This document shows positions 9,149 through 61,925 of a DNA stretch of 64,000 bases, piece by piece. Under the pieces are notes generated by a model. The model was not told the origin of the DNA. It was given only the letters and a program-made list of their open reading frames with translations, and made no database searches. The DNA is from a virus (lineage: Duplodnaviria; Caudoviricetes): positions 5,834 to 69,833 of the IMG/VR virus record IMGVR_UViG_3300046531_000473. The stretch is one strand, 5' to 3'. The translations under genes were made by a program, and so were the position numbers. Each line of letters opens with the position of its first letter. Position 1 is the stretch's first letter.

Positions 9149-9160
9149 TCGTTGCTACTC

Positions 9161-9601: not shown

Positions 9602-9646
9602 GTTCTTTATCCTTTTACAATACTATAGTAGTACTATCTCCACTTA

Positions 9647-10951: not shown

Positions 10952-10992
10952 ATTTTCACATCCTTATAAGTAGTTGTGCATACGTCTTGTCG

Positions 10993-12588
10993 TCAAGCGG
11001 CCATGAGATCTTTGATAAACGCAAATGCTTGTTCAAGCTCTCTTTCATCCTCATCAGCAGTGCTTTCATGCGAGTGCTCCGAGGTGCTACGTGCCTCTTC
11101 TTGTTGAGGCGGGGTAGCAGTATTGCTCTTACCTTCCTGTCGTCCATCGTCAGGTTTCCCTGGATCATCGCCTGCATAGGGCACTTCCGCACCTTGCATA
11201 GTTGTTGCAAAATCGTCTGCTGCGGTTCGTATGGCTTTTGTGTGCTCTTTCATGCTGCTCATGGCATTGTCAGCTAAAGATTTCAGGTTGCTCACATGAT
11301 CATCAATCCTTTGCTGATTAGCCGATGAAATAGGTTTACCAGCTTTCGATGCATGCCTTCGATTATTACTCATATACCCGTAATTAGGTTTGCTGTCAGA
11401 GCCATATTGCATAGTGTAATCTGCTGAGGAATGTGAATGGTCTGTTAAATATCCTGACAGATCACACTCAATAGCCTCTGTAACGAACTTGGAGAGCACT
11501 AATTCTTTAAAGTCATCAAGAGCAGCAGTTATGTCCGGTACGGGAGTATCACCGATCTTGAATGCATCTAGGATTGCGCAAGTGAGAGAGCAGAGAAATA
11601 CATCTTGCCAGTCTTCTAGCAGATCCTCGCACATTTCTTCTGCATAATGCTCTCCAAAGGTTTTCTTTTCTTTAGATTTTCTAGTCATATGCTCCCCTGT
11701 AGATTTGTCGTTATCATCCTCCCAAGGAGGCTTCATATCCATTTTCTTGTAGTAGGCTGCAATCTTTGCTTTGACTCCTGCTACATCGTCGATGCTGGCA
11801 CCGCCCATGGATCCTCGAACAACTCCAGCTCCCGATATAATGCCTTGCGGAATAGCTTTCATCTCATCGCCGTCTTTAGCGACAAATGGCAATTTGCAGT
11901 CACCAAGTTTTTCGGGTGGACTCTTGGCTACCCAGAAGAAGCATTGAGCAACTTTCGACCAATCATCACCCGCCCACTCCTGAATATCTTTCCGTGCCTG
12001 CCCCGCGTCCCACTTTGCATCTCGATCAGCAAGAGGCCATGACGTCTTACCCGATGCGGCTTTTACCCCTACGAGATAGGTTTCGTCATTCATGGCGAAT
12101 GTTACGGGGTCGATGCTCAAGAGGCGTAGTTCTGAGAGATCGCGAACACCGGATTTATCATAGGAGGCACCGTCTGGCATGACATCGTAAATAATGGAAA
12201 ACTCATCAATCATCCCTGCTTTTGCTAGCTCGTAGTATTCTTTGCCTCGCTGAGTAGCAAGAAGGACATCCCCGCTACATCGCAAGCCGAAATTGTCTTC
12301 ACTCAAGTCAGACCATCCACCAATTACCTCGTCAGTTTTATGCTGCCACAACATTTTGAGTAAGTACGGTTTGTCGCGTGCTTCTGCTCGTGATTTACTG
12401 TTTTTGATTGTGCGTGTAAACGATCCTGATAAGATACGGTCATTGCCTTCGTCAATATTATTGAACACAGCACCATATGCTTCAATTTTTCCTACTTCTT
12501 GTCCTTGGGCATTAGTTGATATCTCTACCGCTTTAACCTGAAATGAAAGTGTTTTTGTTTCTCTTGTAATAGTTGCCTTTTTACTCAT
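10993..12588 (-). CDS. HK97-family prohead protease with long C-terminal extension
   Basis: IEAYGAVFNNID..D.I..G.F, MLWQH, FSIIY, ELRLLSIDPVTFAMND. Confidence 0.92.
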   Translation of the reverse strand: MSKKATITRETKTLSFQVKAVEISTNAQGQEVGKIEAYGAVFNNIDEGNDRILSGSFTRTIKNSKSRAEARDKPYLLKMLWQHKTDEVIGGWSDLSEDNFGLRCSGDVLLATQRGKEYYELAKAGMIDEFSIIYDVMPDGASYDKSGVRDLSELRLLSIDPVTFAMNDETYLVGVKAASGKTSWPLADRDAKWDAGQARKDIQEWAGDDWSKVAQCFFWVAKSPPEKLGDCKLPFVAKDGDEMKAIPQGIISGAGVVRGSMGGASIDDVAGVKAKIAAYYKKMDMKPPWEDDNDKSTGEHMTRKSKEKKTFGEHYAEEMCEDLLEDWQDVFLCSLTCAILDAFKIGDTPVPDITAALDDFKELVLSKFVTEAIECDLSGYLTDHSHSSADYTMQYGSDSKPNYGYMSNNRRHASKAGKPISSANQQRIDDHVSNLKSLADNAMSSMKEHTKAIRTAADDFATTMQGAEVPYAGDDPGKPDDGRQEGKSNTATPPQQEEARSTSEHSHESTADEDERELEQAFAFIKDLMAA

Positions 12589-14432: not shown

Positions 14433-15931
14433 TACCAGTTCTCCCCCCATTTTCGATCAGCCCAAGAAAAAGCATCGACTGGCTTTGCAACGGGGCTCAC
14501 GACAAGTACAGGCTCGCTGTCATACATGATTGGTTGAGTGATGGGGAATGGCTGGTCTTTAGAGATAGCAGGAACTGTATTCATAGAAGTAGAATAATCA
14601 TCATCAGACATTGGAAGACGATATACCGATCTGTTAAGTCTCATTGCGATATATCTTGCAACATCGCAAGAGTGATCATTTACTTTGACAGGAACCTCTT
14701 TGATAGATTGACCATTTTTTGAGACAGGCCATGCGTATGCGTCAACTTCCTGTTCAAAACAGTAGGTCTCATGCACTGCTTCTCTCTTTTCATCCCGTTC
14801 TTTTAGAGAGTATTCATACACGTAGAAGCGAGGACGCCCATCCCCCGCAAGCTTGAGTCGGGATTGAAGCTCAGATATGCCAGGAGCTATATCATTGACA
14901 GCTCCAATAGAGGTTAGACCGTTTCCATTGAACTGGGAAATGTAGGAAGGTTCTGCCGGATCACAGATAAATTGCTCAATATCATACTCTTGTTGCAACT
15001 GCTTAGCTTGCTCAACCCACCAATCTATAACCTTTCCCGTTTGGTAAACCTCTCTTAGCAAATAAAGTCGTTCATCACCATCAACGCCATACACCTGTAT
15101 TACACCAGGATTTGTATAGCCCCAATCGACACCAGCCAATACTCGTTTTATAACATTGCGATTTAGCTTCTCGCTCTCATCCTGAAATACCCCCCACTGG
15201 ATAAGTTTTTGCTTGGAAACGAGATGGATTGATCTATCCCAGTCGTCATAAACCATACCTTCAGCAGCAGCCCATTTACCTAGCCTTAGACGTAAGTAGC
15301 GAACGCCAGTCAGCGCATCTAGAGTTGCAAGATACTCAGGAGTAACGGACGGATTGTCCTCATGTCGGCTCTCTAGCATGAGAGTAGCGCCACGATCACA
15401 ACGCCTCTTGAGCCAGTGAGTAGGAGGTCCTGGATTGCAGTCAGCTATGAGTTGCTGGTAGGGCATAACACCATTCCTAAGACGCGTCGTCAATGCTTCC
15501 CAGTCATCCTCAAATAATTCAGTGCCTTCCTGCACATAGGCCATATCGTATTCAGCAGACATTATCTTGGTGGATTTATCCATACCTCCAATTGCGATAA
15601 TGGAACCATTCGGGTAGCGATATTCCTGCTCCGATGTTCTGAAATGAATGAGATTGCCTAACCACCCTTGGGGAAGAACTTTGTTTTCATAAGTGACCAT
15701 GGCTGTTTGTGTAAGCGATTCACGTGTTTTGCGAACGATGATAGCGCGCATACCTGGATACTTATCAGCACAAAAATGAAGTTTTTCCAACAAGGCGCGT
15801 GACTTGCCCGTACCAGCAGGTCCAGCCATCACAACCTCGCGACGCCTGCTTTTCCATGCCGCGATAGCAGATCCAAACGGTTGATATGAACACCTCGCTT
15901 TCGACTGTGAGAGTGTTGATTGCTCTTTCAT
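14432..15931 (-). CDS. terL: Terminase large subunit
   Basis: Walker A AGPAGTGKS, YVQEGTE Walker B, nuclease motifs GVDWGYTNP and NDHSCDVARY. Confidence 0.95.
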   Translation of the reverse strand: MKEQSTLSQSKARCSYQPFGSAIAAWKSRRREVVMAGPAGTGKSRALLEKLHFCADKYPGMRAIIVRKTRESLTQTAMVTYENKVLPQGWLGNLIHFRTSEQEYRYPNGSIIAIGGMDKSTKIMSAEYDMAYVQEGTELFEDDWEALTTRLRNGVMPYQQLIADCNPGPPTHWLKRRCDRGATLMLESRHEDNPSVTPEYLATLDALTGVRYLRLRLGKWAAAEGMVYDDWDRSIHLVSKQKLIQWGVFQDESEKLNRNVIKRVLAGVDWGYTNPGVIQVYGVDGDERLYLLREVYQTGKVIDWWVEQAKQLQQEYDIEQFICDPAEPSYISQFNGNGLTSIGAVNDIAPGISELQSRLKLAGDGRPRFYVYEYSLKERDEKREAVHETYCFEQEVDAYAWPVSKNGQSIKEVPVKVNDHSCDVARYIAMRLNRSVYRLPMSDDDYSTSMNTVPAISKDQPFPITQPIMYDSEPVLVVSPVAKPVDAFSWADRKWGENW

Positions 15932-16425
15932 TCTTCACTCCCGTCGTCATCTGGCAAAATGTTAATGTATTCCTTTGGAAGGATATTGTTGATAATTGCA
16001 GCTTTGTCTCTGTATTCAGGCATTCTTGATTTCGCATGAAATATGAGCAGGGTATCACTTTTCTCTCGAATTGTGAGAGGTTTATTCTCGTGATAGACAA
16101 TCTTACCCATGCTAGTTATAAACCGTTCTTCCCCTATTACAGCACGCTTGAATATCTCGGCACGTATAGTATCGTTTACGTCTTCTTTTGCAAGATTATA
16201 TTGCATACTAAATATTTCATCATGTTCAGACCAATAGTGTACAGTCGTCCGTTCGATACCAGCATACATACATGCGGCTCTAACGTTGCCATTAGCGGCA
16301 AAAGATTTAAGAAATTTCTCTTGTACTTCTTTACGCTGTTCTTTATTGATTTTCTGCCCTTTCACGCGGACACTGGTACTTTTTCTAAATGTTGAAGATG
16401 TTGAAGATGAGGCTTTTTCAGGCAT
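15928..16425 (-). CDS. terS: Terminase small subunit
   Basis: HTH-like N-terminus (GNVRAACMYAGIERTTVHYW), SDTLLIFHAK motif, directly upstream of terL. Confidence 0.8.
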   Translation of the reverse strand: MPEKASSSTSSTFRKSTSVRVKGQKINKEQRKEVQEKFLKSFAANGNVRAACMYAGIERTTVHYWSEHDEIFSMQYNLAKEDVNDTIRAEIFKRAVIGEERFITSMGKIVYHENKPLTIREKSDTLLIFHAKSRMPEYRDKAAIINNILPKEYINILPDDDGSEE

Positions 16426-17725
16426 ATGCCACCTCCTCTATACGCTCTAGAAGTGTGGCTTCGTGTCCCGTGAGTTTTTCCCATCTGGAGATGATGATGT
16501 CAATGTACTCTGGGGAAAGCTCGCAACCGATCACAGTGCGATCCCCTGGCATCTTTTCAGCTGCGATCACAGCGATGCCGGAACCCAGGAATGGATCAAA
16601 GATGATATCGCCTTCCTTGCCATACTTCTCGAACGCCCACTCTGCAAGAGCACACGGTTTTTGTGTTGGGTGTACTCGCTTCTGCCCGTGCTCACTATCC
16701 TTGATCATCCCATTCCACATATGCTTGAATATGCGTACTGCGCTCTTGTCGCTGCACCATGCTAGCTCAGCATCGGCAAAGTTGCCCGTATTCTCTTTAT
16801 CCCAGACAATCCAGCAAGAAGAAGGAGGTAATGCATGAGCATAGTAATTGGCACCCCACCATATTTGCAAAGCTTTTGGAAATTCACTTAGACATAGGCC
16901 AGAAGAAGAGACTGCTGTGTCTGTACTGTTGTCCCCAATCACAGTGGCATATTTGCCCGCTTCAACCAGGTTAGAGGCACCGTCGGTGCCTCTAACCGCT
17001 TTCTTTCTATTCTTCACACCACCAAAAGGAATATTATACGCTTCACCCCCTCCGACCCATCCCTTCGTATCAACGATATCAATACCATAAGGTGGATCAG
17101 CCCATACAAAGTTTACATCAGTATCTCTTAGAAGCTTTTTATACGTTTCTGGGTCTGTAGAGCTGAGGCATGCAATAGTGTGGCGTCCTAGTTTCCATAT
17201 ATCTCCCAGATTTACCCGTGTCTGCTTCTCATCGGGCTCTTCGTCAAAATCATCATCCTCTTCGTCATCCTCATCACCTCCCAGGCACTCGTTACCCAGG
17301 CTCTCTAGCATCTGCCTCAATGACTCATCATCACTGCCGAGACTCGCAAGATCATACCCCGCATCTTGCTGCTCTTGCAGAAGCTCAGCTAATAGAGTCT
17401 CATCATCTTCGGCTTCTTGGCTATGCAAGTTATCCGCTAGCAAATATCCATCAACTTGCTCAGAAGTCCAATTTGCAGGGAGAATATCAGCTCTCAATTC
17501 TTTGTAATCAAGCTTCTTTGCAGCCTCGACAATTCCGTGCCCTGCAACAATGAGATAGCCTTGTGGCCCATCCTGGATAACAATGCTCCTTCCCTGCCCA
17601 AATCGTGTAAGGCTAGAAACAAGTTTTGCCACCTGTGAATCAGGATGGTTCCTGTAATTCCTAGGATGAGGATTGAGCTTATCGATTGGTACTATTCGAT
17701 TTTGCTTGAGAGGACTATCTGTCAT
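16418..17725 (-). CDS. ParB-like domain fused to N6/N4 DNA methyltransferase
   Basis: LNPHPRNYRNH...IVAGHG (ParB); WADPPYG and FDPFLGSG (MTase); start moved to 17725. Confidence 0.9.
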   Translation of the reverse strand: MTDSPLKQNRIVPIDKLNPHPRNYRNHPDSQVAKLVSSLTRFGQGRSIVIQDGPQGYLIVAGHGIVEAAKKLDYKELRADILPANWTSEQVDGYLLADNLHSQEAEDDETLLAELLQEQQDAGYDLASLGSDDESLRQMLESLGNECLGGDEDDEEDDDFDEEPDEKQTRVNLGDIWKLGRHTIACLSSTDPETYKKLLRDTDVNFVWADPPYGIDIVDTKGWVGGGEAYNIPFGGVKNRKKAVRGTDGASNLVEAGKYATVIGDNSTDTAVSSSGLCLSEFPKALQIWWGANYYAHALPPSSCWIVWDKENTGNFADAELAWCSDKSAVRIFKHMWNGMIKDSEHGQKRVHPTQKPCALAEWAFEKYGKEGDIIFDPFLGSGIAVIAAEKMPGDRTVIGCELSPEYIDIIISRWEKLTGHEATLLERIEEVAYA

Positions 17726-17806
17726 TGTTACCCTGTAAACAAAAACGGGCGTTGCTCTCGTGATGAGAAACAACGCCCGTGTGAAACACAATCTGAGCTG
17801 TTACTG

Positions 17807-34020: not shown

Positions 34021-34324
34021 TAGGCATAAGGTGTAATTGAGGCGATTTTTAGATTGCCTATCGTCTCGTTAGTACACGTAATGCACAAATATTGCACCCA
34101 ACGACATAACAGCAACACGGTGTAACGGTGACACCGTCGAGTACCGAGAGCCTCAGAGCGACAACACTCTAAAGCTGCTGCACGTTCAAACAGTATTGCT
34201 GCGGAACAGTGAAACTTTGGAACTGTGTTGCAGTCACAAAGGTTGCCCCTAGACGCAAAAAAGGACCGCGCCAATTTCTAGCACGGCCATGATGATGTTG
34301 CTGTTATGCTTCTTAAATGCTTTA

Positions 34325-34959: not shown

Positions 34960-35538
34960 TCACTTCTTGATATTGATGCTAACTGAAGAATTACCACCTG
35001 CATCTTGTATTGTCCCGTCTTCTCCGATCTTTACAGGATAGGAGAATGCTAAGGCATCAGGTTCGCTGTACACCGGATCAATCTCAGAGCCTCCGCCTGG
35101 AAGAGTTCGAATGCAAAGCACCCAAGTGGCTGTTGAGGTACCAGTGTACAAACCATTGGGCTCTGCTTGAGGAATTACAGTATTTCCTCCGTACTGGCTA
35201 TGATCCGGCTGTACCTGAGAAGGATTCGTGAGCTGTGTTGTGTACGGTATTGGGTATCCTCTGCTAGGGCACACGAATACAGGTTTCCCCATACTGTATA
35301 TCACTGTCCATGTGTTTGTGAGCTTCATACGAGCATCGTAAATCTGCTGAAGCTCGTCACGCTCTGGTGAGTAATCATACTTGTGAAGTGGCTGGTTGTT
35401 GGCATACGTCGTTTGTTGATCGTTAACTTGATTTGACTCTGATGATGTTTGTGCAGGTGTATAATCGCAAGCACTTGCGGACAACACGATGCACAACAGG
35501 ATCAGCCATGGCGTAATCATAAATGCTTTATTTTTCAC
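34960..35538 (-). CDS. Phage lipoprotein
   Basis: Signal peptide with lipobox (LSASAC); SPERDEL, GYPIPYTTQLTNP, QAEPNGLY. Confidence 0.8.
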   Translation of the reverse strand: MKNKAFMITPWLILLCIVLSASACDYTPAQTSSESNQVNDQQTTYANNQPLHKYDYSPERDELQQIYDARMKLTNTWTVIYSMGKPVFVCPSRGYPIPYTTQLTNPSQVQPDHSQYGGNTVIPQAEPNGLYTGTSTATWVLCIRTLPGGGSEIDPVYSEPDALAFSYPVKIGEDGTIQDAGGNSSVSINIKK

Positions 35539-35548
35539 GTTTGTCTCC

Positions 35549-36040
35549 TTATCTTACTGGAAACTGCACAAAGAAGCCTTGCAGCTCTGGCATGTCTTTG
35601 ACAATTTCAGGACGTGAGCACTCAGAAGCATCAAGAGCATTGTAGATGTCACGTGCATTTTGTTTCTCTTGCGCTTTGAGTTGTGTCTTCAGTGTCTGAT
35701 CTTGTGTTGATGCAATGTCAACATTGTTGTTCGATATGGCATCAAGATCGTTGCTGATCCTTGCCTTGTTCGATACCAAGTATTGCATGCTACACGTTGT
35801 AACATGGCGTTCACTGTTTGCTAGAGGAACTGCAAGATGATAATTGTACCATACTGCAAAGCCTGTACTGCCGATAGTGAATAGTACTGCAAGTGCCATA
35901 GTCACCAGGCACCCCATGCTTAGCCCTAGGAATGTTGTTTGGTCTTCATTCACGATAAATCTCCTCATGCTCAATATGAGCACTATATTCGAGCCTCTTG
36001 ACTCGCCTCTGCCAAGCTTTTCAGACTTGGCAAAAGCCAA
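35549..36040 (-). CDS. Single-pass membrane protein with coiled C-terminus (partner of the lipoprotein)
   Basis: Hydrophobic segment LVTMALAVLFTIGSTGFAVWY; true start uncertain. Confidence 0.6.
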   Translation of the reverse strand: MAFAKSEKLGRGESRGSNIVLILSMRRFIVNEDQTTFLGLSMGCLVTMALAVLFTIGSTGFAVWYNYHLAVPLANSERHVTTCSMQYLVSNKARISNDLDAISNNNVDIASTQDQTLKTQLKAQEKQNARDIYNALDASECSRPEIVKDMPELQGFFVQFPVR

Positions 36041-36046
36041 CCAGCG

Positions 36047-36427
36047 CTAGATCCAATTCAAGAGAAACTTGGCACGTAACGTCTGCATTACAAGATTATA
36101 GCTGTATTGTGAAGTACCTGGATAAATCCACCAACGCGATGCATGCGATGGCAACCTTGCTTCGTCTTCCTCTGCATAATCCTGGCCAGCTAAGAATATC
36201 AGCTCAGTGCCGTGTGCATCGCGATAATGATACTGCGCTGGTAGCGTTGCCAGCTTTGATTGCTTCGAGAATGTCATCGGACGCATATCGAATGCAAGGT
36301 GGAAGCCAATCTCTTCAAGGATTGCTGTGACTTCGCTCACTGATGGACATACGAGGCAGAACGCTTCAAGATTTGCGAGTTGTGCTATTACTTGTGCTAA
36401 CATGTTGTTTTCCTTTACTTTCGCCAT
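36047..36427 (-). CDS. Hypothetical protein
   Basis: 126 aa. Confidence 0.55.
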   Translation of the reverse strand: MAKVKENNMLAQVIAQLANLEAFCLVCPSVSEVTAILEEIGFHLAFDMRPMTFSKQSKLATLPAQYHYRDAHGTELIFLAGQDYAEEDEARLPSHASRWWIYPGTSQYSYNLVMQTLRAKFLLNWI

Positions 36428-37626
36428 GAATTCGCATCGGCTTCTACTGATGCAATGTAGGCAGCTTCATCATTATTATCTGATGAGGGAGCATAGTGTG
36501 GAATTACTTGTTCTACAGTGGATGCATGAAATTGACCGATGTAGACTTCAGAGATCAGCTTAAACCAATCATGGATACCACCGTTCCACGTAGGATATGC
36601 TCTAAATCTTCCGATGCACGAATATCCCGATGAACAATTGATATTTCCAATGCTTAGTGTCCGTGTAGCAGCACCTTGTGTACCAAAGCTGCTCTCGTGC
36701 TTGAAGAACGCCAAGGCATAAACCGGATCGATGCCATATTTGACGCCATCATCATAGAAAGTCTGGCCAGCTCCACATGCAGGGCTACCGGCATTGCAGA
36801 GGATGCTGTTGATCTTCTCTGCTGATATCGATGGTGCTCCGACCACGGAAGAGCCTGATGCATGGTTGCTGACGGGATGGTCGCTCTTGATGACAGCTGC
36901 AAGACCTGTGTACTGTGCAGCAAATGTTGCACGGCTAAACGAAGTTCGATTCGTGGACCAACTATCAACAACGCGAATATGCGAACCATCGCCACCCGTA
37001 ACTACCAAGATATGACCGTTGGGCCAATCCGCATTACGCATTGAGATAACCACTGGAGAACCACTATTTGCGACGCGCACAATGCCATCAATACCACCTT
37101 GCACAGATGTGGCATGGTAACCAAGTGACCCAACGGTTTTTGATACACTCGTGAAACCATTGAGTAATCCTAAATCAGAGCTGATTTGTTGAGCGTTGAT
37201 CTCAGCAGTTAGCGTATCCTGAAGATGGTAGTGTCCACCCGCTGCATTGAGAGCATACGTCATGGCTGCTGCGCTGCAAGAGGAATGCCACCATTCGTTG
37301 TACTCTTGCGTGGTCGTGTATGCATTTGGACTCGTTTGGTCTACTCTTGACACTGCTATGATGGGTTGCTGAGGTACTGCTTGAACCGTCTGCTGAGGTG
37401 ACGGTTTCGGTGCGATCGAATTGAATAGGGATGGGAGTTTCGACCCAGGGAAGAACCATGCAACGCCGATAATCGTAATGATAAAGAAGGCCACCTCTAC
37501 TTGCTTTACCAATCCTCTCACGAATGACTGATGCCCATCTTGCGAAATGACAACCCTCACCTCACAAGGGTTATCAGTATCCTCTTCTAATGGTTGTATT
37601 CCAACCATTCGGCTAATATAATTCAA
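36415..37626 (-). CDS. Membrane-anchored cell-wall hydrolase (C39-like peptidase plus glucosaminidase)
   Basis: TM segment; SCSAAAM...GHILVVTG...VVDSW; YGIDPVYALAFFKHESSFG...NIGNI...YPTWNGGI. Confidence 0.85.
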   Translation of the reverse strand: MNYISRMVGIQPLEEDTDNPCEVRVVISQDGHQSFVRGLVKQVEVAFFIITIIGVAWFFPGSKLPSLFNSIAPKPSPQQTVQAVPQQPIIAVSRVDQTSPNAYTTTQEYNEWWHSSCSAAAMTYALNAAGGHYHLQDTLTAEINAQQISSDLGLLNGFTSVSKTVGSLGYHATSVQGGIDGIVRVANSGSPVVISMRNADWPNGHILVVTGGDGSHIRVVDSWSTNRTSFSRATFAAQYTGLAAVIKSDHPVSNHASGSSVVGAPSISAEKINSILCNAGSPACGAGQTFYDDGVKYGIDPVYALAFFKHESSFGTQGAATRTLSIGNINCSSGYSCIGRFRAYPTWNGGIHDWFKLISEVYIGQFHASTVEQVIPHYAPSSDNNDEAAYIASVEADANSWRK

Positions 37627-37704
37627 GGTGGTTAATCTCCTATTGAATCAGTCCAGAAACGCTCTCTCGAAACAGTATTTTCCCCCTTCCAAACTTCCAA
37701 ATGA

Positions 37705-37728
37705 AGGTCTATTTTCGAAAATAGACCT
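37705..37728. repeat. Perfect 24-bp palindrome
   Basis: AGGTCTATTTTCGAAAATAGACCT. Confidence 0.95.
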
Positions 37729-37849
37729 GTTTTCAGGACATCTATGAAACCGCTTGTCAAGCCATCCCATTCTATTTTTAGAAAGGCGGTGAGAAGACAA
37801 ACGAAAAATCCTTGTCAACATCCGATCATCGTTATCCCCTGGTTTCGAT

Positions 37850-38896
37850 TTACGCTTCCATCTCGATGTAATCATCTATAGAAACCACTTTTGTATCCGG
37901 CAAAGGAGCTATTTTCAGCCAGTCAATGACCGATGAAACGATGATCAAATCTTTATTTCGGTTATGCCGTTGAAAAGGAGCTTTGCAGAGCCTCCGTTTT
38001 GAATGGCCAGTGATCGTAGCAATCTCATCAATCGAGACAGTCTTCACTCCCTTCTCAATCCATTCTGAGATGACATTTGGGTAATCCTCTATTCCGGTCC
38101 TCTCTAGATTCTCTGCACGTTGCGCTAAACGCCTTGTCTGATTGGTGCTTTCGATCAAGCGGACATTGACGGTCTCCAGATCGTTTGTCAGGTTCTCAAT
38201 AATCGTTTCCAGTCTGTTCTTCTGCTCTTCAATGTCCGCTTGCATCTTCGCTTTCTGAGTGGCAATAGAAGCTTCCAAGTCGGCTATTTTGTTTTCTTTG
38301 GACGAAACAAAATCTGCATAATCAGGTTTGCCGATAAGAACAAAGAGCATAGACAAAAAACCGTAGAGATACCCAGATAAAGCGCGTGTGGCAATTATAA
38401 AAGGCGGCATCTCATATCCGATATGAAGTGAGGAAGATCCCAATGTCCACAAGCTTAATCCCATAAAAACAATCGTTGGTAAGCCAAACAATATCCCCCA
38501 AGTCAATGAGGATTTTTTCTTATGCAGACAGTAGGATTTTATATGCCCATATGTCGTCACGAAAGCCAAACCAACGATAATCTCTGGAAGACTCGTGAAT
38601 GAGGCAACCGATAACTGCGAAAGCGTTTCCGAAACAGCCTCACTCACTACTTTGAGCATGAGCGGATGAACCGTAGCATTCACACTTATCCAGAGTGAAG
38701 CCATCAAGAAAACGCATTCGGAAATAGTACCAGCCGAAACGACCAGCCAGTATAGGAATGACTTGACCCATTCCCATGAAAGGATGTATAGAGCCGTTGA
38801 CAGACTTTTCTCTCTATTAAGTTTATGCGTGGCTATAACAGCGACCAAAACGACTGCGATAGCCATGAACGTGATTGTCGTGATAAGAGCTATCAT
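37850..38896 (-). CDS. Multi-pass membrane protein with coiled coil and C-terminal HTH
   Basis: Several TM segments, coiled coil, VSIDEIATITGHSKRRL; start moved to 38896 (GAAGGAGG). Confidence 0.8.
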   Translation of the reverse strand: MIALITTITFMAIAVVLVAVIATHKLNREKSLSTALYILSWEWVKSFLYWLVVSAGTISECVFLMASLWISVNATVHPLMLKVVSEAVSETLSQLSVASFTSLPEIIVGLAFVTTYGHIKSYCLHKKKSSLTWGILFGLPTIVFMGLSLWTLGSSSLHIGYEMPPFIIATRALSGYLYGFLSMLFVLIGKPDYADFVSSKENKIADLEASIATQKAKMQADIEEQKNRLETIIENLTNDLETVNVRLIESTNQTRRLAQRAENLERTGIEDYPNVISEWIEKGVKTVSIDEIATITGHSKRRLCKAPFQRHNRNKDLIIVSSVIDWLKIAPLPDTKVVSIDDYIEMEA

Positions 38897-38918
38897 AATT
38901 TCCTCCTTCTCAAATTCG

Positions 38919-39029
38919 TGTCTGAGCGATGTCTGAAAAATGTACGAAATACTGTCTGTCCGTCCGAAACGTGTCCGATTTGAGCTTACGGACGCGACAA
39001 AGAGACATCGGACAGACAAAAATCGGACA
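38919..39029. repeat. Cluster of TGTC(C/T)GA-type direct and inverted repeats
   Basis: Direct copies at 38919, 38930, 38941, 38961, 38972; inverted copies at 38988, 39008, 39023. Confidence 0.75.
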
Positions 39030-40682
39030 TTAATTGATCAATTTCCTCCGCTTTAATTCTTTGATATACACCTCCCCTTGATACTTCGTTGTCTGCATTG
39101 CGGCCCCGAGTTCTCGGTAGGATGTAATTCCTTCTTGGTAAAGCCGCAATGCCTCTTGCAGTTCAGGAGAAACCCGATTACTCGGTCGATGCGACGGTGG
39201 CTGTCTTGGAGACAACGGCTCTATCACATCAGTTTCTTCTAACCTACGGGTACCCTTTGGATCAATATCCAATTCCTCCTCTGGCAGGATCATCGTTTGC
39301 ACGGATCGTGGCGATGTCTCTTTCATTCGAAGCCTCTTGATGCCAGGAGTCTCAGACAAATCGCGTGATTGCCTTGTGTCGAACTTCACAACCATGGGTT
39401 TTTGTGTGAACCCGAAAACAACTCCTGTCCCAACTGGCATGGACTCGATCTCTTGGCGTGTGACCACACCATTGACGATTTGTTCACACATGTCCAGGTC
39501 ATTTTTCTCTGCATGTCGCATGAGGATTTTGATCTGGCAACTCTTGATCATTGCTTTTGCAACATAGGTCAGAGATGGAGTAGCAAAACACATCGTGTAT
39601 CCATTGGATCGCCCATTACTGACTAATGCAAAGTAGGCATTATTGAGGCTTTCAAGGACATCTGAATTCTTTCGCGCTTCTGGTGGCAACATCTTTGGAT
39701 CTTGCGGAATATAGAGCTGTGCTTCGTCCTGAAAAACGAGGCATGGAATAAGAGGATTGCTAAGCTCTCTTTGCCGTGCTGAATAGCGCATAAGAGCTTG
39801 CCCCACAGCCGCCACAATCTCAGCACGATCAAGCCATCCGTCTCCATAGGATGGAAGATGGATAATAGCTTGATGTCTCCTTTCCATGATCAAGTGCACA
39901 AAGTCATCAGCATTATCGATAGACAACTCAAAGCAGCCCGCTTTAGATCGAAGACGATCAGATCCGGCCCTGATTCCATTCACGAATGGCAGGTCTACTA
40001 TTCCTGCATATTCACCTTTGTGGTCGAAAACGATGGCAGGAACACCGCATTTTGCGGCTTGCTCAATAATCAAGCCGCAAAGCATTGATTTGCCTGATCC
40101 TTGCACCGCAGCGACAATCATGCCCTTCCCAAAGAAATCATCAATCCATGGGTCAAACCGATACTTTTTCTTTGTCTCTGTTCCTAGTCTCAATGTTTCA
40201 TCCTCTGGATACTGAGGAAAGATGTTCCCCGCAAGAGATGAATCTTGCTGGTGAACTCCACGAACAGGGAGGATGTTCTTCCGCATTTCAGAGGGCTCAA
40301 ATCGCGTCTGCGGCATTGCTAGGGACCCCTCATTGCTGAACGACATAGCAGCCATCCTGCTGGAGACAGGATCTTCAATTTCAATCGCATCACTCACTTT
40401 AGAATCTCGTTTCCTGCCGAGCACCCTGTCACCAATGCCTCTTGACGTTGGCACCTTGACCGCCTTACCCATAAATTGCTTACCCGAACCGATAATTTGA
40501 TCACCATGCCGGAAAGCAACAAGAGTCAGGCAACCAGCGGCAACTAGCCCGAATGTCCCAAAGTGCATTAATGAAGGAATAGAAATCAGTCCTGTGCCCA
40601 GTGCAGCACCACCGTTAGTGGTAAGCCCCCATTTGTCTTGAACTTCTAATGCCTCAACAGTTTCCTCATCACGCGTATCCAT
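39030..40682 (-). CDS. HerA/FtsK/TraB-like DNA translocase ATPase with N-terminal TM and C-terminal wHTH
   Basis: AVQGSGKS, VFDHKGEY, VFQDEAQLYIP, NGRSNG..CFATP; C-terminal ELGAAMQTTKYQGEVYIKEL. Confidence 0.85.
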   Translation of the reverse strand: MDTRDEETVEALEVQDKWGLTTNGGAALGTGLISIPSLMHFGTFGLVAAGCLTLVAFRHGDQIIGSGKQFMGKAVKVPTSRGIGDRVLGRKRDSKVSDAIEIEDPVSSRMAAMSFSNEGSLAMPQTRFEPSEMRKNILPVRGVHQQDSSLAGNIFPQYPEDETLRLGTETKKKYRFDPWIDDFFGKGMIVAAVQGSGKSMLCGLIIEQAAKCGVPAIVFDHKGEYAGIVDLPFVNGIRAGSDRLRSKAGCFELSIDNADDFVHLIMERRHQAIIHLPSYGDGWLDRAEIVAAVGQALMRYSARQRELSNPLIPCLVFQDEAQLYIPQDPKMLPPEARKNSDVLESLNNAYFALVSNGRSNGYTMCFATPSLTYVAKAMIKSCQIKILMRHAEKNDLDMCEQIVNGVVTRQEIESMPVGTGVVFGFTQKPMVVKFDTRQSRDLSETPGIKRLRMKETSPRSVQTMILPEEELDIDPKGTRRLEETDVIEPLSPRQPPSHRPSNRVSPELQEALRLYQEGITSYRELGAAMQTTKYQGEVYIKELKRRKLIN

Positions 40683-40695
40683 TTATCGCCCCTTT

Positions 40696-41202
40696 CTAGG
40701 AGAATATATCTCCTATTGCTGATAGAGCAATTTCTGCTCCCTTCTTGCCGCACACTACAATGACAAACGTGCACATGATCGAAACAAGCCACTGATATTC
40801 CCATGGTAGAATTCGCAAGTAGTTGTAATTTGCGAACGCATCCAGCGATAGGATAATCAGACAAACCGTTTTGAAGAATTTGTCTTCGCCTCTCTCATCC
40901 GGCGTAACGATTTCGGCAATTCCGGTGGCGATGAGGAGAATGTAAACTCCCCAAGCGCCTAAGACTGCCACCGTCTGGACGTCACCATGAATGTTGCCAT
41001 TCATGAGATCCCACAATTGTGTGAGGCATTGCCAACTTAGGACAAAGCTTCCACCATGCCCCCTTTTGATGAGATCCTCCGTTGTGAGGATCGAAAAGGA
41101 CGAGAATACAATCCAGAGGACAATGAGGATTATTCCGATGCCTAATCGAAATAAAGGTACGTCTTGTATTTTTGTTGGTAGTCTGTTGTTTGGCATTGTC
41201 AT
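40696..41202 (-). CDS. Four-TM membrane protein
   Basis: Four hydrophobic segments. Confidence 0.75.
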   Translation of the reverse strand: MTMPNNRLPTKIQDVPLFRLGIGIILIVLWIVFSSFSILTTEDLIKRGHGGSFVLSWQCLTQLWDLMNGNIHGDVQTVAVLGAWGVYILLIATGIAEIVTPDERGEDKFFKTVCLIILSLDAFANYNYLRILPWEYQWLVSIMCTFVIVVCGKKGAEIALSAIGDIFS

Positions 41203-41381
41203 CTCCTAACTGCCTTGCTTGTATTATATTGCATCACCGCAACAACTTTTTCAACGTCAACCTGCTCTCCATATTGCCTTGCAAATGCAGCAACACCTTC
41301 CGATGTAATACACCACTTATTAGCAATGAATAGCTTGATAATGTTATTAATCAACTCTCGCTCTTTGTCACTAATCATCAC
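41199..41381 (-). CDS. Hypothetical protein
   Basis: 60 aa, coupled to neighbours. Confidence 0.4.
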   Translation of the reverse strand: MMISDKERELINNIIKLFIANKWCITSEGVAAFARQYGEQVDVEKVVAVMQYNTSKAVRR

Positions 41382-41390
41382 TGTATCCTT

Positions 41391-41969
41391 TCAAACCTGT
41401 GTAGCCGATAACTCTCCATTAACGTCGGCGTACACACGAAACTCTCCAACTGTCTTTATTACAGAATTGCCGTATGCACTGCGTATGAATGGGATATTCA
41501 TCCAATCGTCTGTTTTTTCGTACAGAGCGAAACCACCCAGATTAATCGGTGCGCTTGTCTTATTGGATGTACTATCGAATTGACCGTTTAATCTTGTCAA
41601 TGAGTAAACACTCTTCATGCCGATGAAGTGCATGTATGGCTGTAACTCTACAACAGCGACTTGTAGGAACCAGCGATCACCTGCAATCTCATAGGTTTCC
41701 GCTTCTGTTCTCTCCGCCCTTTTCAGGGTTATCAGCAGAGTATGCGGTTTATTTTCAACAGCCACAGCGGTTACTGTTGCAACAAGCGTTTTCTGTGAGA
41801 ATGCAACGAATGTTTGGATGAAGAAGAAAACGGCAACGGCAAGGACGACTGCTATCAATCCAAAGAATTGCCTGCCAGACTTGCCAATCTTCATCCACAG
41901 CCATATCACTGCAATGACAGTCCAAATGGCAACGATCATTGGTATCCAGTCTTGAAAGTTCTTCATCAA
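41391..41969 (-). CDS. Membrane protein
   Basis: Two N-terminal TM segments followed by a soluble domain. Confidence 0.7.
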   Translation of the reverse strand: MMKNFQDWIPMIVAIWTVIAVIWLWMKIGKSGRQFFGLIAVVLAVAVFFFIQTFVAFSQKTLVATVTAVAVENKPHTLLITLKRAERTEAETYEIAGDRWFLQVAVVELQPYMHFIGMKSVYSLTRLNGQFDSTSNKTSAPINLGGFALYEKTDDWMNIPFIRSAYGNSVIKTVGEFRVYADVNGELSATQV

Positions 41970-42178
41970 TAATCCTCATCGGCATGAATATGCGGCTTGT
42001 CGCTAAAAATCTCGCATTCATCGCACCAATGCGTTTCTTTCACTTTTACAGCAACTACAGGCTCTTCCTTGATGCCCAGCAAAGCTTTGGCCGCTGATGT
42101 TGGCGTGGCCTTTGCTTTAGGCTGTACTGGCGTTGATGTAATGCCCATGCCTTTTCTGAGCAAATCTTTGTAACTCAT
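41966..42178 (-). CDS. Small protein with C-terminal CxxC/His motif
   Basis: HWCDECEIFSDKPHIH. Confidence 0.55.
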   Translation of the reverse strand: MSYKDLLRKGMGITSTPVQPKAKATPTSAAKALLGIKEEPVVAVKVKETHWCDECEIFSDKPHIHADEDY

Positions 42179-42315
42179 GGTTTTCTCCTCTTACTCCTAG
42201 ATGTCCTTCGTTTCTTCTGCCATTTTCTTTGCCACCTTTTGTGCTTGATGTATCCAAGAGTAAACGGCAGCATGAGGAGCGCATAGAGCACAAGGCCTAG
42301 CTGCTGATGTGACAT
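42175..42315 (-). CDS. 46-aa membrane peptide with polybasic tail
   Basis: MSHQQLGLVLYALLMLPFTLGYIKHKRWQRKWQKKRRTSRSKRRKP*; RBS AAAGGAG; ATGA overlap with the next gene. Confidence 0.55.
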   Translation of the reverse strand: MSHQQLGLVLYALLMLPFTLGYIKHKRWQRKWQKKRRTSRSKRRKP

Positions 42316-46307: not shown

Positions 46308-46336
46308 ATTATAACTGACAGAAATGCGCTTGTCAA
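46308..46336 (-). promoter_or_regulatory. Perfect consensus sigma70 promoter (leftward)
   Basis: TTGACA-17-TATAAT. Confidence 0.92.
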
Positions 46337-53381: not shown

Positions 53382-54158
53382 ATGGGCCAAGTATGGGTAA
53401 ACGGTCATTGGCGCAAAAAGCCAACCAGGAAACGCGGTGGTGGTGATTTATCTTCGATAGGCTGTATGGCTCCGATGGTTTTGTTGGGAGGAATCCTAGT
53501 ACTCTTGCTCTATCCTTTGTTCATCCTATATCTATTTGTCTCCTCGCATCCAGAAATAGTAGGATTGTTTGTTGTATTGGCTCTTGTTGCAATTGTAGGA
53601 TTTGTCATTTTCAGATCTAATAGAGACAAGATTGAGGAGAGAAAGAGAAGGGATTTTCAAGCTTATCAGCAATACACAGCCCAAGTGCAGGCTCAAAAGG
53701 ATGCTGAGCAACACCATCAACAAATGGTTTACCGAGGACAAGAACTAGCACGTAGAGAGCGTGAACGCTTTGTCAGGGTAAAAACCCTGGGGGATATGCT
53801 GATGCTGACACCCACAGAATTTGAAGAAGCCATTGGAAGAATGTTAGCGTCGAAGGGGCTTCACCACGTCCAACGAATTGGTGGCAGTGGTGACTTGGGC
53901 ATTGATCTCCTAGCTAACGATACGCACGGCAACCGTATTGTCATACAGTGCAAGCGATACGCGCCAGGGAGGTCTATTGGCACTCCAGATTTGCAAAAGT
54001 TTATCGGCATGATGTTTGTCCATCATAAAGCGCAAAAGGGTATTTTTGTTACCACTTCAATATTTAAGCAAACAGCAATAGACTTGGCTCATGATAATGA
54101 TATATTGCTCATCGATGGCAATTCTCTTGTCAATCTTATGCAAGGCATAACGATGTAA
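53382..54158 (+). CDS. Membrane-anchored Mrr-like restriction endonuclease domain protein
   Basis: Two TM segments; EFEEAI...GDLGIDL...VIQCKRY...FVTTS. Confidence 0.9.
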   Translation: MGQVWVNGHWRKKPTRKRGGGDLSSIGCMAPMVLLGGILVLLLYPLFILYLFVSSHPEIVGLFVVLALVAIVGFVIFRSNRDKIEERKRRDFQAYQQYTAQVQAQKDAEQHHQQMVYRGQELARRERERFVRVKTLGDMLMLTPTEFEEAIGRMLASKGLHHVQRIGGSGDLGIDLLANDTHGNRIVIQCKRYAPGRSIGTPDLQKFIGMMFVHHKAQKGIFVTTSIFKQTAIDLAHDNDILLIDGNSLVNLMQGITM

Positions 54159-59856: not shown

Positions 59857-60501
59857 TCATATCTCCTCACCATTCCCGTAGTAAGGCAGTCCCTTTATCG
59901 TAGGAGGATCTATAGTGGTTCTCAGTCTTTGAGGTTTCCCGTCAATCTCTCTCCAATGCAAGAGCACAAGATCTAGCCTTTTGAGTTCATCAAAGTCAAA
60001 GCACAGAAAGGGCTGGTCAGAGCGAGTGTTCTCAGGTATCCACTCCTTTGGCTTTAAAGATCCGTCAAGGATGCAATTACGCATCCTCTGACAGTCTGTT
60101 ACGATTACCTCAACAAGCCGATTAACAAGATAATCATAGTACCCATAGACAAAAAGCAATGCTAGAAGCTTTGATAACTCTCCTGGCTTTCCTGAAGCAT
60201 TATTAAGCAGAGTGATGGTTAGATCTTGATAGCGTTGATAATTTGTAGCATCCCTATATCGATACTGTGAAGTAAATTTCATGGGATGCTTGAAATTAGG
60301 GAACTTAAGCCAGAATGAGAAGTCTATTCCTTGCTCAGTATCGAGATATGTTCGAATTTCTTCAGGAATAGCATCCTCATCATAGATCGCATCTATCCCT
60401 TTTAATCCATAAGCAGGAGGGTAAATGAGATCTTTGTATCTGTCGTTAATCTGATCAGAATAAACCTTTTGCTCAGGTAAAAATGGAGTTTGTCCCATCA
60501 T
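59857..60501 (-). CDS. Hypothetical protein
   Basis: Start moved to 60501, coupled to the MTase stop. Confidence 0.6.
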   Translation of the reverse strand: MMGQTPFLPEQKVYSDQINDRYKDLIYPPAYGLKGIDAIYDEDAIPEEIRTYLDTEQGIDFSFWLKFPNFKHPMKFTSQYRYRDATNYQRYQDLTITLLNNASGKPGELSKLLALLFVYGYYDYLVNRLVEVIVTDCQRMRNCILDGSLKPKEWIPENTRSDQPFLCFDFDELKRLDLVLLHWREIDGKPQRLRTTIDPPTIKGLPYYGNGEEI

Positions 60502-61925
60502 TTCACTTCCTCTGCTTTTTGTCCTGAAACGGCTTCCCAGCGCTTGATGATTGACTCGCAATACTCGACACTCAATTCAGCTCCGACGCATTGACGCCCT
60601 AGCAGCTCACAGGCTATGAGGGTTGTGCCTGTTCCTAGAAATGGGTCAATAACCGTCTCTTCCTGCTTCGTGAACATCTCGATAATGTGTTTCATGAGGT
60701 TAATGGGTTTGCGGCCTTTGTGCTTTAGAGGGTCTTGATCGCCACCAGAAATACTAATTGATTCTTTATCCTGGTCCCATTGCTCATCTGGGTCAATCCG
60801 CTCTAGGTCCTGTTCATTGCGATAGAGAGACTGCTCTGTGAATAGTGCGACATACATCCAATTTCCAAAACCGAGAGCGCCGCGTGTCATACCGTTATTG
60901 ATCCAATAGGACATAGACCATTTGTAGGGCATATCTGTAGTACGCATGAAATCTTTGATAGCTGAGATACCTGGGGTTACGGCTACGATAGGGGCCAGAT
61001 CTGAGAGATAGTCATGCTTCCATTCAAAGTTGACATCCCACTCATCAACACCCGCATTGTAGGGAGGATCGGCAAAAGCGAACGAGGGCTGGAGGTCCCG
61101 TGCCTTGCTTGTAAATTCGTCTGAAGAGCTATTTCCACAGTAGAGCAGGTGCAGGCCTAGCTTCCACCACGAGCCTAGGGTTATGCCTCTGTCTGGCATG
61201 GTTTCGATTTTTTTGAGTTCTTCTTCAAGCTGTTGTGCTTTAAGCCTCGCTTCCTCCTCTTCTCGCTCCCGATCCAGTCTTTCTTTCTCTTCAGCTTTTA
61301 CTATCTTGTCAAGCGTATTCCAAGCGGATGTGATGCTTTGCTCATTCAGTTGTGTACGCAATATTTCTGCATAGCGGTGGTAGTCACCAATTCGCAGTTC
61401 CATATCAATGCGCTCTACTACATCCTTGCCTTTTTCGTAGGTCTTGCCAGAGCCTAAGCCGACACGACGTGCGATGATGTCGCTAATACGCCCGTCATCA
61501 AGTGGGAAAATTTTCTCACTTGAAAATCCCTCACTCTTTCTATCTCCGCCATGTCTGCCTTTACCTTTCTCTACATCCTCCCACGTCATACCCTCCCTGA
61601 TTTGCTGTTCCGGCGTCTTGCCTCGGTTTTCGTTTTCCCGCAAGAGACGCTCTATCTCAGCTTCTGGAGATGCGAATACTTCAATCACAACGGGAAGCGC
61701 TGTATAGCCAAGCGCCATAGCCACACGAAAGCGCCTGTGCCCACTGACAACCACATACTCAGGAGTCACGGTAAGCGGCTTGATCCATCCTGACTCTGCA
61801 ATGCTTTGTTGCAGTTCCATGACATCCTCATCGCCATAGATCTCGACATTGCGAGGATGTGGCTTCAGGAGATTGATATCGATTTGCTCTATGACCACGT
61901 TTGATGGTGTTATATCTACTGCCAT
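60498..61925 (-). CDS. Second ParB-like plus N6/N4 DNA methyltransferase fusion
   Basis: LKPHPRN...VVSGHRR (ParB); FADPPYN; VIDPFLGTG. Confidence 0.9.
   Translation of the reverse strand: MAVDITPSNVVIEQIDINLLKPHPRNVEIYGDEDVMELQQSIAESGWIKPLTVTPEYVVVSGHRRFRVAMALGYTALPVVIEVFASPEAEIERLLRENENRGKTPEQQIREGMTWEDVEKGKGRHGGDRKSEGFSSEKIFPLDDGRISDIIARRVGLGSGKTYEKGKDVVERIDMELRIGDYHRYAEILRTQLNEQSITSAWNTLDKIVKAEEKERLDREREEEEARLKAQQLEEELKKIETMPDRGITLGSWWKLGLHLLYCGNSSSDEFTSKARDLQPSFAFADPPYNAGVDEWDVNFEWKHDYLSDLAPIVAVTPGISAIKDFMRTTDMPYKWSMSYWINNGMTRGALGFGNWMYVALFTEQSLYRNEQDLERIDPDEQWDQDKESISISGGDQDPLKHKGRKPINLMKHIIEMFTKQEETVIDPFLGTGTTLIACELLGRQCVGAELSVEYCESIIKRWEAVSGQKAEEVK

Follow-up and report, generated by a model that had tools for sequence, protein, structure and literature searches.

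The DNA analyzed here, referred to as the window, is a 64,000-nucleotide stretch of a viral contig in IMG/VR (IMGVR_UViG_3300046531_000473). Its minus strand carries, at 36415-42178, a run of genes for small membrane proteins, a membrane-anchored ATPase of the HerA superfamily, a transmembrane (TM)/coiled-coil/helix-turn-helix (HTH) protein, and a TM-anchored wall hydrolase (Table 1). A preliminary description had proposed that this block is a conjugation- or spread-like DNA transfer module embedded in a tailed phage, and all four proteins that it described were found there on the minus strand. The phage context was borne out as well, as PHROGs assignments place a siphovirus-type structural block with tail, capsid, protease, portal, and terminase genes on the minus strand at 3-15931. 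The block is a module with a conserved gene set, occurring in tailed phages and in integrative elements without detected virion genes, and an inverted-repeat element lies at or just behind its ATPase gene. We tentatively interpret it as a sequence-addressed translocon for double-stranded DNA (dsDNA).

Table 1. Coordinates of the features discussed (window positions unless another locus is named)
Feature	Position	Strand	Basis and remarks
Window	5834-69833 of the contig		linear IMG/VR viral contig of 69,833 bp; CheckV completeness 77%; G+C content ~45%
Tape measure protein	3-4046	minus	PHROGs
Major tail protein	4628-5917	minus	PHROGs
Major capsid protein	9647-10951	minus	PHROGs
Head protease	10993-12588	minus	PHROGs
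Portal	12585-14450	minus	PHROGs
Large terminase (TerL)	14432-15931	minus	PHROGs
Terminator-like hairpin	34264-34288		tail end of the ~12-kb leftward gene run containing the module
Three tightly packed genes: 126 aa; 163 aa with a TM helix; 192 aa with a signal/lipoprotein-like N terminus	34960..36427	minus	
TM-anchored bifunctional wall hydrolase: C39-type cysteine peptidase and GH73-type glucosaminidase	36415..37626	minus	domain matches, TM prediction
24-bp perfect palindrome, unique in the window	37705..37728		within the 223-bp gap ahead of the hydrolase gene
TM/coiled-coil/winged-HTH (wHTH) protein, 348 aa (alignment A2)	37850..38896	minus	AlphaFold2 (AF2) model, homologues
Candidate cis site, imperfect long inverted repeat	38897..39029		arms of TGTCYGA/TCRGACA 7-mers; center GCTCAA 45 nt past the ATPase stop
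Membrane-anchored HerA-superfamily ATPase, 550 aa	39030..40682	minus	Pfam, TM prediction, AF2, structure search
Multi-TM protein (>=2 TM), 168 aa, family 'c2', alignment A7	40696..41202	minus	TM prediction
TM-less protein, 60 aa	41199..41381	minus	
Protein of 192 aa with two N-terminal TM helices and a C-terminal domain of ~120 aa	41391..41969	minus	TM prediction
TM-less protein, 70 aa	41966..42178	minus	first tightly packed gene; stop overlaps next start by 4 bp
Sigma-70 consensus promoter, 12/12 (TTGACA, 17 nt, TATAAT)	46308-46336	minus	consensus scan only
Thermosporothrix hazakensis element	L002:1-20800, with repeat copy G003:C55:3001-3069		tmRNA-integrated, replicative

Proteins encoded by the gene run

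Neighboring genes of the run overlap or sit 9 to 13 bp apart, except at two gaps of 133 bp (38897-39029) and 223 bp (37627-37849), both of which contain inverted repeats. Given these repeats, co-transcription of the entire run is no more than plausible. The ATPase matches the Pfam family DUF87/HerA (PF01935; E 1.5e-6, 28.9 bits, cut-off 23.2) and has one predicted hydrophobic helix at about residues 38 to 56. Its AF2 model (mean pLDDT, the predicted local confidence, 78.8) comprises a helix at 21-74, a disordered linker at 75-150, a confident RecA-like core at 150-460, and a C-terminal three-helix HTH at 505-545 with pLDDT >90. The anchor, the HerA core, and the HTH that had been described at first sight were thus all recovered; the model has no wing strands, so 'HTH' is a safer term for this domain than 'wHTH'. 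Within the Walker A (GSGKS, 195-199) and Walker B (DEAQ, 319-322) motifs, G195, G197, K198, S199, D319, and E320 are invariant across 43 aligned relatives. DUF87 was matched by 42 of these 43 family members, whose C termini carry assorted HTH and wHTH Pfam matches, and there are weak matches to Zot, HerA_C, TrwB_AAD_bind, and TraG-D_C in the family (the last two in 4/43).

The ATPase core was ranked against known structures by VIA-align Z scores, and Foldseek agreed. HerA (4d2i) tops the ranking with Z 28.5, followed by the HerA of the DUF4297-HerA system (9c1m; 27.8), TdpA (24.9), DndH (24.6), VirB4 (22.5), TrwB (20.8), STIV2 B204 (18.9), TcpA (18.5), EccC (about 18), and FtsK (17.3). On this ranking, the modeled core is of the HerA clade and not of the TraB/FtsK clade. 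FtsK_SpoIIIE (PF01580) gave no match in the window ATPase or in any of the 43 family members at E<=1, and a placement of the motor in the TraB/FtsK family is thus not supported. Weak matches of the ATPase to a phrog annotated 'terminase large subunit' and to NCBIfam CedD and VirB4_plasma were set aside, as they cover little beyond the P-loop. A role as the packaging ATPase of a membrane-containing virus, as for STIV2 B204, was also rejected, because the window has its own TerL and an HK97-type capsid and because the 21-kb T. hazakensis element described below is without a capsid candidate.

The structural neighbors suggest that the block could instead be a cargo gene set for defense or superinfection exclusion, in which a membrane HerA-type ATPase and its membrane partners would sense or expel foreign DNA. 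The closest folds are the HerA proteins of DUF4297-HerA and SIR2-HerA systems, TdpA, and DndH; PADLOC reports matches to mad8 and HerA models; and the ATPase family is sporadic, being present in 15/169 genomes of the class Ktedonobacteria. The top PADLOC match, mad8 of the MADS system (E 1.4e-10), is read here as a probable superfamily-level likeness; in one paper, MAD7 and MAD8 are treated together as an ATPase-nuclease module (PMC13662399). The N-terminal HAS barrel of HerA is absent from the ATPase model, in which residues 1 to 150 form the TM helix and the disordered linker. No nuclease or effector partner (NurA, SIR2, DUF4297, or TdpB) was found among ten neighbors with Pfam and PHROGs or among six with PADLOC, and a defense role leaves the membrane partners unexplained. 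Together with the repeat element and the operon position reported below, these points make a defense function quite unlikely.

The gene following the ATPase lies in an open reading frame (ORF) at 37850-39019. Its true start is most likely M42 at 38896, which is preceded by an AAGGAGG ribosome-binding site and yields the 348 aa of database gene P0064. This protein has five TM helices, and its AF2 model places helices at 2-39, 42-74, 86-125, 128-157, and 165-266; the last of these extends into a coiled coil of ~70 aa, and residues 273-329 beyond it fold as a helix/strand winged HTH. Neither the 348-aa nor the 168-aa protein had usable relatives in the protein atlas, and the sole lead for the former was a resemblance of its C terminus to HTH_17/excisionase. 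Homologues of the 168-aa multi-TM protein lie immediately upstream of the ATPase gene in L002, L004, L005, L006, G108, and L112 (L and G denote our loci and genomes). A complex prediction for this protein with the ATPase scored 0.00, which counts neither way on binding. Farther upstream, the 192-aa two-TM protein has a homologue with 39% identity in L110 at the same relative position, two genes ahead of the ATPase. The 60-aa protein has no homologue in the fetched loci, and the 70-aa protein has no family match in Pfam or PHROGs.

For the hydrolase, a Peptidase_C39_2 match is on record and one TM helix is predicted. Its own match to Glucosaminidase (PF01832) is below threshold (E 3.8e-4), and its C-terminal third is 50 to 55% identical to many Ktedonobacteria proteins that bear this domain. 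By eye, the translation has a Cys (...SSCSAAAM...) and a His (...GHILVV...) at the positions of a C39-type catalytic dyad and an E-S-x-x-G stretch at the position of the GH73 catalytic Glu. A glucosaminidase also occurs near a distant DUF87 ATPase in L102 and, in L114, after genes for a small TM protein, an ATPase, and a TM/coiled-coil/HTH protein. The palindrome in the gap ahead of the hydrolase gene could be an operator, an attenuator, or a terminator-like hairpin, and the hydrolase may therefore be separately controlled.

A membrane-anchored hydrolase next to small membrane proteins could also serve lysis or wall remodeling, with the hydrolase as a signal-anchor endolysin, the small proteins as holin- or spanin-like components, and the ATPase unrelated to them. 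Two catalytic domains are found in many endolysins, and no second endolysin was seen in the part of the contig examined. The preliminary description had counted the lack of a clear holin-endolysin layout against lysis, an argument that proved weak. Beyond the window, the remaining 5.8 kb of contig contain the rest of the tape measure gene, after which two leftward ORFs, presumably also for tail proteins, extend to where the contig ends. The contig, 77% complete, thus stops within the tail genes, and a lysis cassette in the usual position after them would be off the contig. No holin family match was obtained in the block with Pfam or PHROGs. Against lysis, the hydrolase gene is ~30 kb from the tail genes within an early-type operon, and the core of the module also occurs in elements without detected virion genes. 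In addition, the related phage L112 has a Phage_holin_6_1 and GH25 lysis cassette of its own beside its tail genes (13191-14601), in addition to the ATPase module, which we count in favor of a DNA-translocating role. We consider a lysis function very improbable.

Repeat element behind the ATPase gene

In the 133-bp gap that follows the ATPase gene, five exact copies of TGTCYGA fall within 111 bp, split three to two between the strands. The same word occurs 18 times in the whole 64-kb window, which equals the chance expectation. RNA folding of the gap gives a long imperfect hairpin (-41.3 kcal/mol, z -4.0), which does not duplicate a repeated hairpin element present at 42.7-43.9 kb.

Other loci have the same inverted-repeat design at the same place with different words, and the arm words vary among loci yet remain complementary within each locus. 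The arms are CAGACA/TGTCTG in L103, GATTGA in L104 (z -4.6), TGTCTGTCGTC in L097 (-56.9 kcal/mol, z -5.0), GAGTGA in L101 (z -5.4), TGGTAAACC in G096 (z -6.9), CAAACAAATAGA in L114 (z -3.8), and TGTGTG in L100 (by eye from the ORF translation). The array lies within the 3' coding part of the ATPase gene in G108 (ATTCAC), in L005 (CACTTC; 5 forward, 6 inverted), and in L002 (GGAAAC; 12 forward and 5 inverted, 17 in 515 bp). In L002, GGAAAC is read in all three frames of a disordered linker, which indicates that the repetition is selected at the nucleic acid level and not at the peptide level. The 3' end of the ATPase gene is the densest hexamer-repeat cluster of the whole 12- to 40-kb locus in 6/19 loci. 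By our own estimate, ~2.5% of windows lie near the stop, and six top-ranked clusters there are far beyond chance.

The center of the element is more constant than its arms. TTGAGC/GCTCAA is found +32 to +47 nt past the ATPase stop in 10/19 loci (9/18 if the near-identical L098 and L099 are taken once), against a background of ~1 per kb. It occurs in either orientation relative to transcription, and a DNA site therefore fits better than an RNA loop. Four loci allow the arms to be compared with the HTH domains, and the co-variation described here rests on them. The window and L103 have a common arm word and similar ATPase HTH domains despite an ATPase identity of 28.6%, L104 and L110 differ in HTH sequence and in arms alike, and the wHTH of the partner protein is nearly identical across all four. 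From these few cases we infer that the ATPase HTH reads the variable arms, and the partner wHTH may read the conserved center.

Such a self-linked site that tracks the HTH of the motor would follow the logic of TraB and its clt repeats, with binding as a prediction. It is unexpected for a sensor of foreign DNA. Should the module turn out to be a defense or segregation device, a self-linked, co-varying repeat would still be an undescribed feature of a HerA-type motor.

Occurrence of the module in phages and integrative elements

The ATPase family is rare. A search retrieved 150 cluster representatives at E<=1e-30 among 1.84 billion, most of which match the profile end to end. Members are metagenome proteins together with proteins of T. 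hazakensis (class Ktedonobacteria, phylum Chloroflexota) and of a Ktedonobacteraceae metagenome-assembled genome, and relatives of the hydrolase include Ktedonobacteraceae and Reticulibacter proteins. These homologies of the ATPase and the hydrolase point to Ktedonobacteria as the probable host class of the window phage, a phage from soil. Ktedonobacteria are filamentous, Gram-positive, and spore-forming, with an actinomycete-like sporulation (PMC9689679), in agreement with the earlier suggestion that a transfer module of this kind would suit a filamentous host. A tblastn search of 50,697 phage records gave one weak match (23.6% identity, E 2e-4), a 'hera helicase' of an uncultured Caudoviricetes phage, and none in SPP1. 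Plasmid records gave nothing beyond weak P-loop-level matches to the family, and a single-sequence scan of viral and genome contigs gave almost no relatives. An alignment-based genome scan was flooded by distant alphaproteobacterial DUF87 genes and was left unused. The loci fetched for comparison are mostly short metagenome contigs; their ORFs were called with a simple longest-ORF script and clustered by BLASTP.

Across these loci, a core triad recurs in fixed order: a multi-TM protein of 170 to 230 aa, the ATPase, and a third protein of 370 to 490 aa, termed 'c3' in the chromosomal loci, in which an N-terminal TM domain is followed by a long coiled coil and then a C-terminal HTH. The order was found in the window, in L002 (the T. 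hazakensis chromosome), in G108, in L097, in L098 and L099 (near-identical loci of two genomes), and in L100. A plain hidden Markov model (HMM) of the chromosomal c3 proteins fails to detect the 348-aa protein of the window, and the probability in a profile-profile comparison is just 48% (E 1.9e-4), across the TM domain; homology between them is for this reason no more than suggested, by architecture and position.

Homologues of the 348-aa protein with 43 to 56% identity directly follow a P-loop ATPase gene in L103, L104, L110, L112, and L114. The L111 homologue (46% identity) is preceded not by such a gene but by one of 508 aa that has a faint transposase-like (UPF0236) match. The ATPases that precede these homologues are at most 28.6% identical to that of the window (~28% in L103 and L114), and those of L104, L110, and L112 form a separate group that aligns with it only around the P-loop. 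The 348-aa partner is thus kept beside at least two barely alignable ATPase groups, and the partnership survives divergence or replacement of the motor. The five-gene order of the window, including the 192-aa two-TM protein, is repeated in L110, and its four-gene order (small TM protein, ATPase, TM/coiled-coil/HTH protein, glucosaminidase) is repeated in L114. The recurrence of the same gene order in unrelated contigs supports the reading of the block as a conserved module and not as a lysis cassette, a chance grouping, or random membrane genes. A grouping of the ATPase with defense or packaging HerA clades, combined with membrane genes that are not conserved beside it, had been named in advance as speaking against a transfer module; the ATPase does fall in the HerA clade, and the membrane genes are conserved with it.

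One carrier without detected virion genes is on the T. hazakensis chromosome. Its integrase gene abuts the gene for the transfer-messenger RNA (tmRNA), and a ~70-bp imperfect copy (82% identity) of a stretch at the tmRNA 3' end lies on a second draft contig, ~150 to 210 bp left of the L002 start. The direct repeat at the tmRNA 3' end and its distal copy therefore bound an element of ~21 kb. The element encodes XRE-type regulators, a clamp-like protein, the triad, a PAPS-reductase-like protein, an O/DnaD-type Rep protein, DnaB, Xis, and Int, and it has four iterons. The iterons, built on the palindrome-like word ATTGTTCAAAATTTGAACGA, lie at L002:16576-16723, either within the Rep-like gene ahead of DnaB or a short way upstream of that gene, and are likely the replication origin of the element. 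No capsid, portal, terminase, or tail family was found in the element by precomputed Pfam matches or, for ten proteins, by PHROGs. In layout it resembles an actinomycete integrative and conjugative element (AICE), with a tyrosine integrase, an attachment (att) site at the tmRNA 3' end, and modules for replication and XRE regulation. It departs from AICEs in having no main transfer protein with an FtsK-SpoIIIE domain; its only large ATPase is the DUF87-type protein P0018. The module lies in the backbone operon between regulatory and replication genes and not in a variable cargo spot, which again argues against defense.

A second such carrier, the G108 island, is located between the host genes RsgA and Lon and contains two integrases, an endonuclease VII, and regulators, with no virion Pfam family among its 36 ORFs. 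The expectation that the block should recur in plasmids or integrative and conjugative elements (ICEs) of the host phylum was thus confirmed by the T. hazakensis element and the G108 island, in both of which virion genes were undetected. Three further islands (L097, L099, and L100) also lie between host genes; their Pfam tallies list 25/38 families only, so that integrases or virion genes may be present there.

Two additional contigs carry distant relatives of single components. L102 (G117:C101:7000-26207), on a 26-kb plasmid- or ICE-like contig, has a Tn3 transposase, a weak relaxase-like match, a clear VirD4, ParA, and a primase-polymerase-like gene. It also encodes a TM-less, 380-aa distant DUF87 ATPase beside an HNH gene and a glucosaminidase with 43% identity to the C terminus of the window hydrolase. 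In L115 (8282-12852), a full-length C39/glucosaminidase homologue follows a gene like ParM/actin-like protein (ALP) genes and precedes GerE and NUDIX genes, and a distant DUF87-like ATPase is encoded 8 kb past it. Nudix proteins are typical of AICEs (PMC2440964).

In the phage contigs L004, L005, and L006, only the small TM protein and the ATPase are present, followed by a ParM/ALP-like gene. These contigs bear on the possibility that the module serves segregation only, with the motor pumping or tethering DNA of an extrachromosomal element at septa into compartments and spores, as SpoIIIE, FtsK, or SffA would, and without passage between individuals. Besides the ParM/ALP-like genes, a ParA gene is close by in L004 and L111, and L006 comes from a complete 102-kb phage genome (G002) with terminal repeats in which a tyrosine integrase was not found. 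The repeat array could serve such a device as a loading or centromere site. However, segregation through a closing septum needs no wall hydrolase, whereas both the window and L114 have one linked to the module. Moreover, as integrated elements, those of T. hazakensis and G108 would be inherited along with the chromosome. We regard segregation as the only function as unlikely.

Interpretation and comparison with known systems

We tentatively favor the interpretation that mycelial Ktedonobacteria have in this block a conserved module of their mobile elements, which would build a membrane-embedded, sequence-addressed dsDNA translocon and serve conjugation-like transfer or spread within the mycelium. 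This is because its parts list equals that of the TraB/clt/Spd systems: an anchored motor with a DNA-binding tail, a repeat site at the gene of the motor itself, small and poorly conserved membrane proteins in a tight operon, a membrane protein with a predicted DNA-binding domain, a wall hydrolase, and integrative, replicative carriers in a mycelial host. In the mechanism that we propose, the ATPase would be tethered through its N-terminal TM helix and assemble a HerA-like ring, and its C-terminal HTH would load the motor on the repeat array located at the ATPase gene or directly past it. A membrane conduit would be formed by the small multi-TM protein together with the TM/coiled-coil/wHTH protein, and the TM-anchored peptidase/glucosaminidase would open the wall locally, so that element DNA might cross a septal cross-wall or pass between touching hyphae.

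Several observations weigh against this interpretation. The nearest structural neighbors of the ATPase include the anti-phage HerA, TdpA, and DndH proteins, and its top PADLOC match is mad8. Repeat arrays are not evident in L004, L006, L102, and L111, of which L004 has the center word. Instead of a transfer site, the repeat element with its strong hairpin could serve in RNA processing or attenuation or as an operator. The pair beside a ParM-like gene in L004, L005, and L006 fits segregation as well as it fits transfer. The window's own contig, which is 77% complete, yielded no tyrosine integrase, serine recombinase, or ParA, and without an integrase this contig lacks the AICE combination of a tyrosine integrase and a tRNA/tmRNA att site. 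Finally, VirD4-type systems occur in 42/169 Ktedonobacteria genomes (a tally that includes G079), and there is therefore no obvious 'missing' conjugation machinery in the class. G079, flagged as unpublished, is also counted, along with G118, in a tally of AAA_10, and nothing else reported here draws on either genome.

Membrane-anchored hydrolases combining a glycosidase with a peptidase are encoded by Gram-positive conjugation operons, as exemplified by CwlT (ICEBs1), TcpG (pCW3), and PrgK (pCF10). The hydrolase of the window differs in its domains, a C39-type peptidase and a GH73-type glucosaminidase. VirB4, VirD4, and relaxase Pfam families were not found in the block, the part of the window scanned for relaxases. 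FtsK with its KOPS words and SpoIIIE with its SRS words are membrane-anchored septal pumps in which a C-terminal HTH-type domain reads short oriented DNA words. The module ATPase is of another clade, and its words are clustered beside its gene and not spread chromosome-wide.

In Streptomyces plasmids and AICEs, dsDNA is moved by one membrane-anchored FtsK-like motor, TraB, which binds 8-bp clt repeats, and Spd proteins, which bind membrane, DNA, and peptidoglycan, are required for spread through septal cross-walls (PMC4447253, PMC2440964). The main transfer protein of AICEs carries an FtsK-SpoIIIE domain (PMC2440964). The module resembles these systems (pSVH1, pIJ101, and AICEs such as pSAM2) in its single anchored motor of the ring-ATPase type with a C-terminal DNA-binding domain and in the short repeats at or behind the gene of the motor. 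As in these systems, the small membrane proteins are poorly conserved, the operon has stop codons that overlap start codons, and the carriers are small integrative, replicative elements of a mycelial, sporulating host. In contrast, its motor is of the DUF87/HerA clade and not FtsK_SpoIIIE, and its site is an inverted repeat with a conserved center, whereas clt consists of direct 8-bp repeats only. It further has a dedicated bifunctional wall hydrolase, occurs in tailed phages as well, and would act in Chloroflexota and not in Actinomycetota. Of the proposed TraB-like transfer module, the layout of anchor, motor, and HTH was upheld, the repeats behind the ATPase gene are a candidate clt-like site, and membership in the TraB family was not supported.

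Among phages, the closest parallel is SPP1, in which gp31.1, gp31.2, and gp32 comprise small TM proteins and a TrwB/VirB4/FtsK-like ATPase. Growth does not require gp31.2 or gp32, and the authors suggested that the module might be a trans-membrane translocon of unknown role (PMC6316719). The module is similar to that of SPP1, and also of Geobacillus phage GBK2, in being an early-region phage module of small TM proteins and an ATPase. No sequence match to SPP1 was found, however, and in the module the ATPase itself bears the TM anchor and the HTH, is accompanied by a wall hydrolase and a TM/coiled-coil/wHTH protein, and has the cis repeat site at its gene. With the HerA systems (HerA-NurA, SIR2-HerA/Nezha, DUF4297-HerA, TdpAB, and DndFGH), the module shares the fold of the ATPase core and a DUF87 match above threshold. 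It is unlike them in that the HAS barrel is missing from the model and no nuclease or NADase partner was found, and in its membrane anchor, C-terminal HTH, membrane partners, and self-linked repeat site.

In our literature search, no paper was found on such a module in Chloroflexota, and nothing relevant was found on conjugation or phages of Ktedonobacteria. What would be new is a TraB-like logic on a HerA-clade motor, in another phylum, and common to phages and ICE-like elements. The full proposal, that mycelial Chloroflexota have a HerA-derived single-motor system for dsDNA conjugation or spreading that is independent of TraB, is common to AICE-like elements and tailed phages, is addressed by the arms and center of the repeat, and lets some phages spread within mycelia as naked DNA with no virions made, goes further than the translocon interpretation and is somewhat doubtful. 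If it is true, single-motor dsDNA conjugation is not a peculiarity of actinomycetes but a convergent mycelial solution from two branches of the FtsK-HerA superfamily. Tailed phages would have, besides virions, a further means of spreading that needs none; this would make the boundary between phages and ICEs less sharp and would be relevant to the persistence of prophages in multicellular bacteria. It would also provide a testable model for the modules of TM proteins and VirD4/FtsK/HerA-like ATPases in phages such as SPP1, with a defined cis site and a cultured carrier, T. hazakensis.

The surroundings of the module in the window were also inspected. The sigma-70 consensus promoter (Table 1) is likely the start of the leftward operon that holds the module, and a divergent region at 46.3 to 46.45 kb resembles a phage regulatory switch. 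The three tightly packed genes past the hydrolase gene have no homologues among the fetched loci. They may encode accessory envelope proteins and are only candidate members of the module; the 192-aa protein among them matches phrog_24725 (function unknown). Elsewhere in the window, two separate genes encode fusions of a ParB-N domain with a DNA methyltransferase (16418-17791 and 60498-61925), and a gene for an Mrr-type restriction endonuclease is located at 53382-54158.

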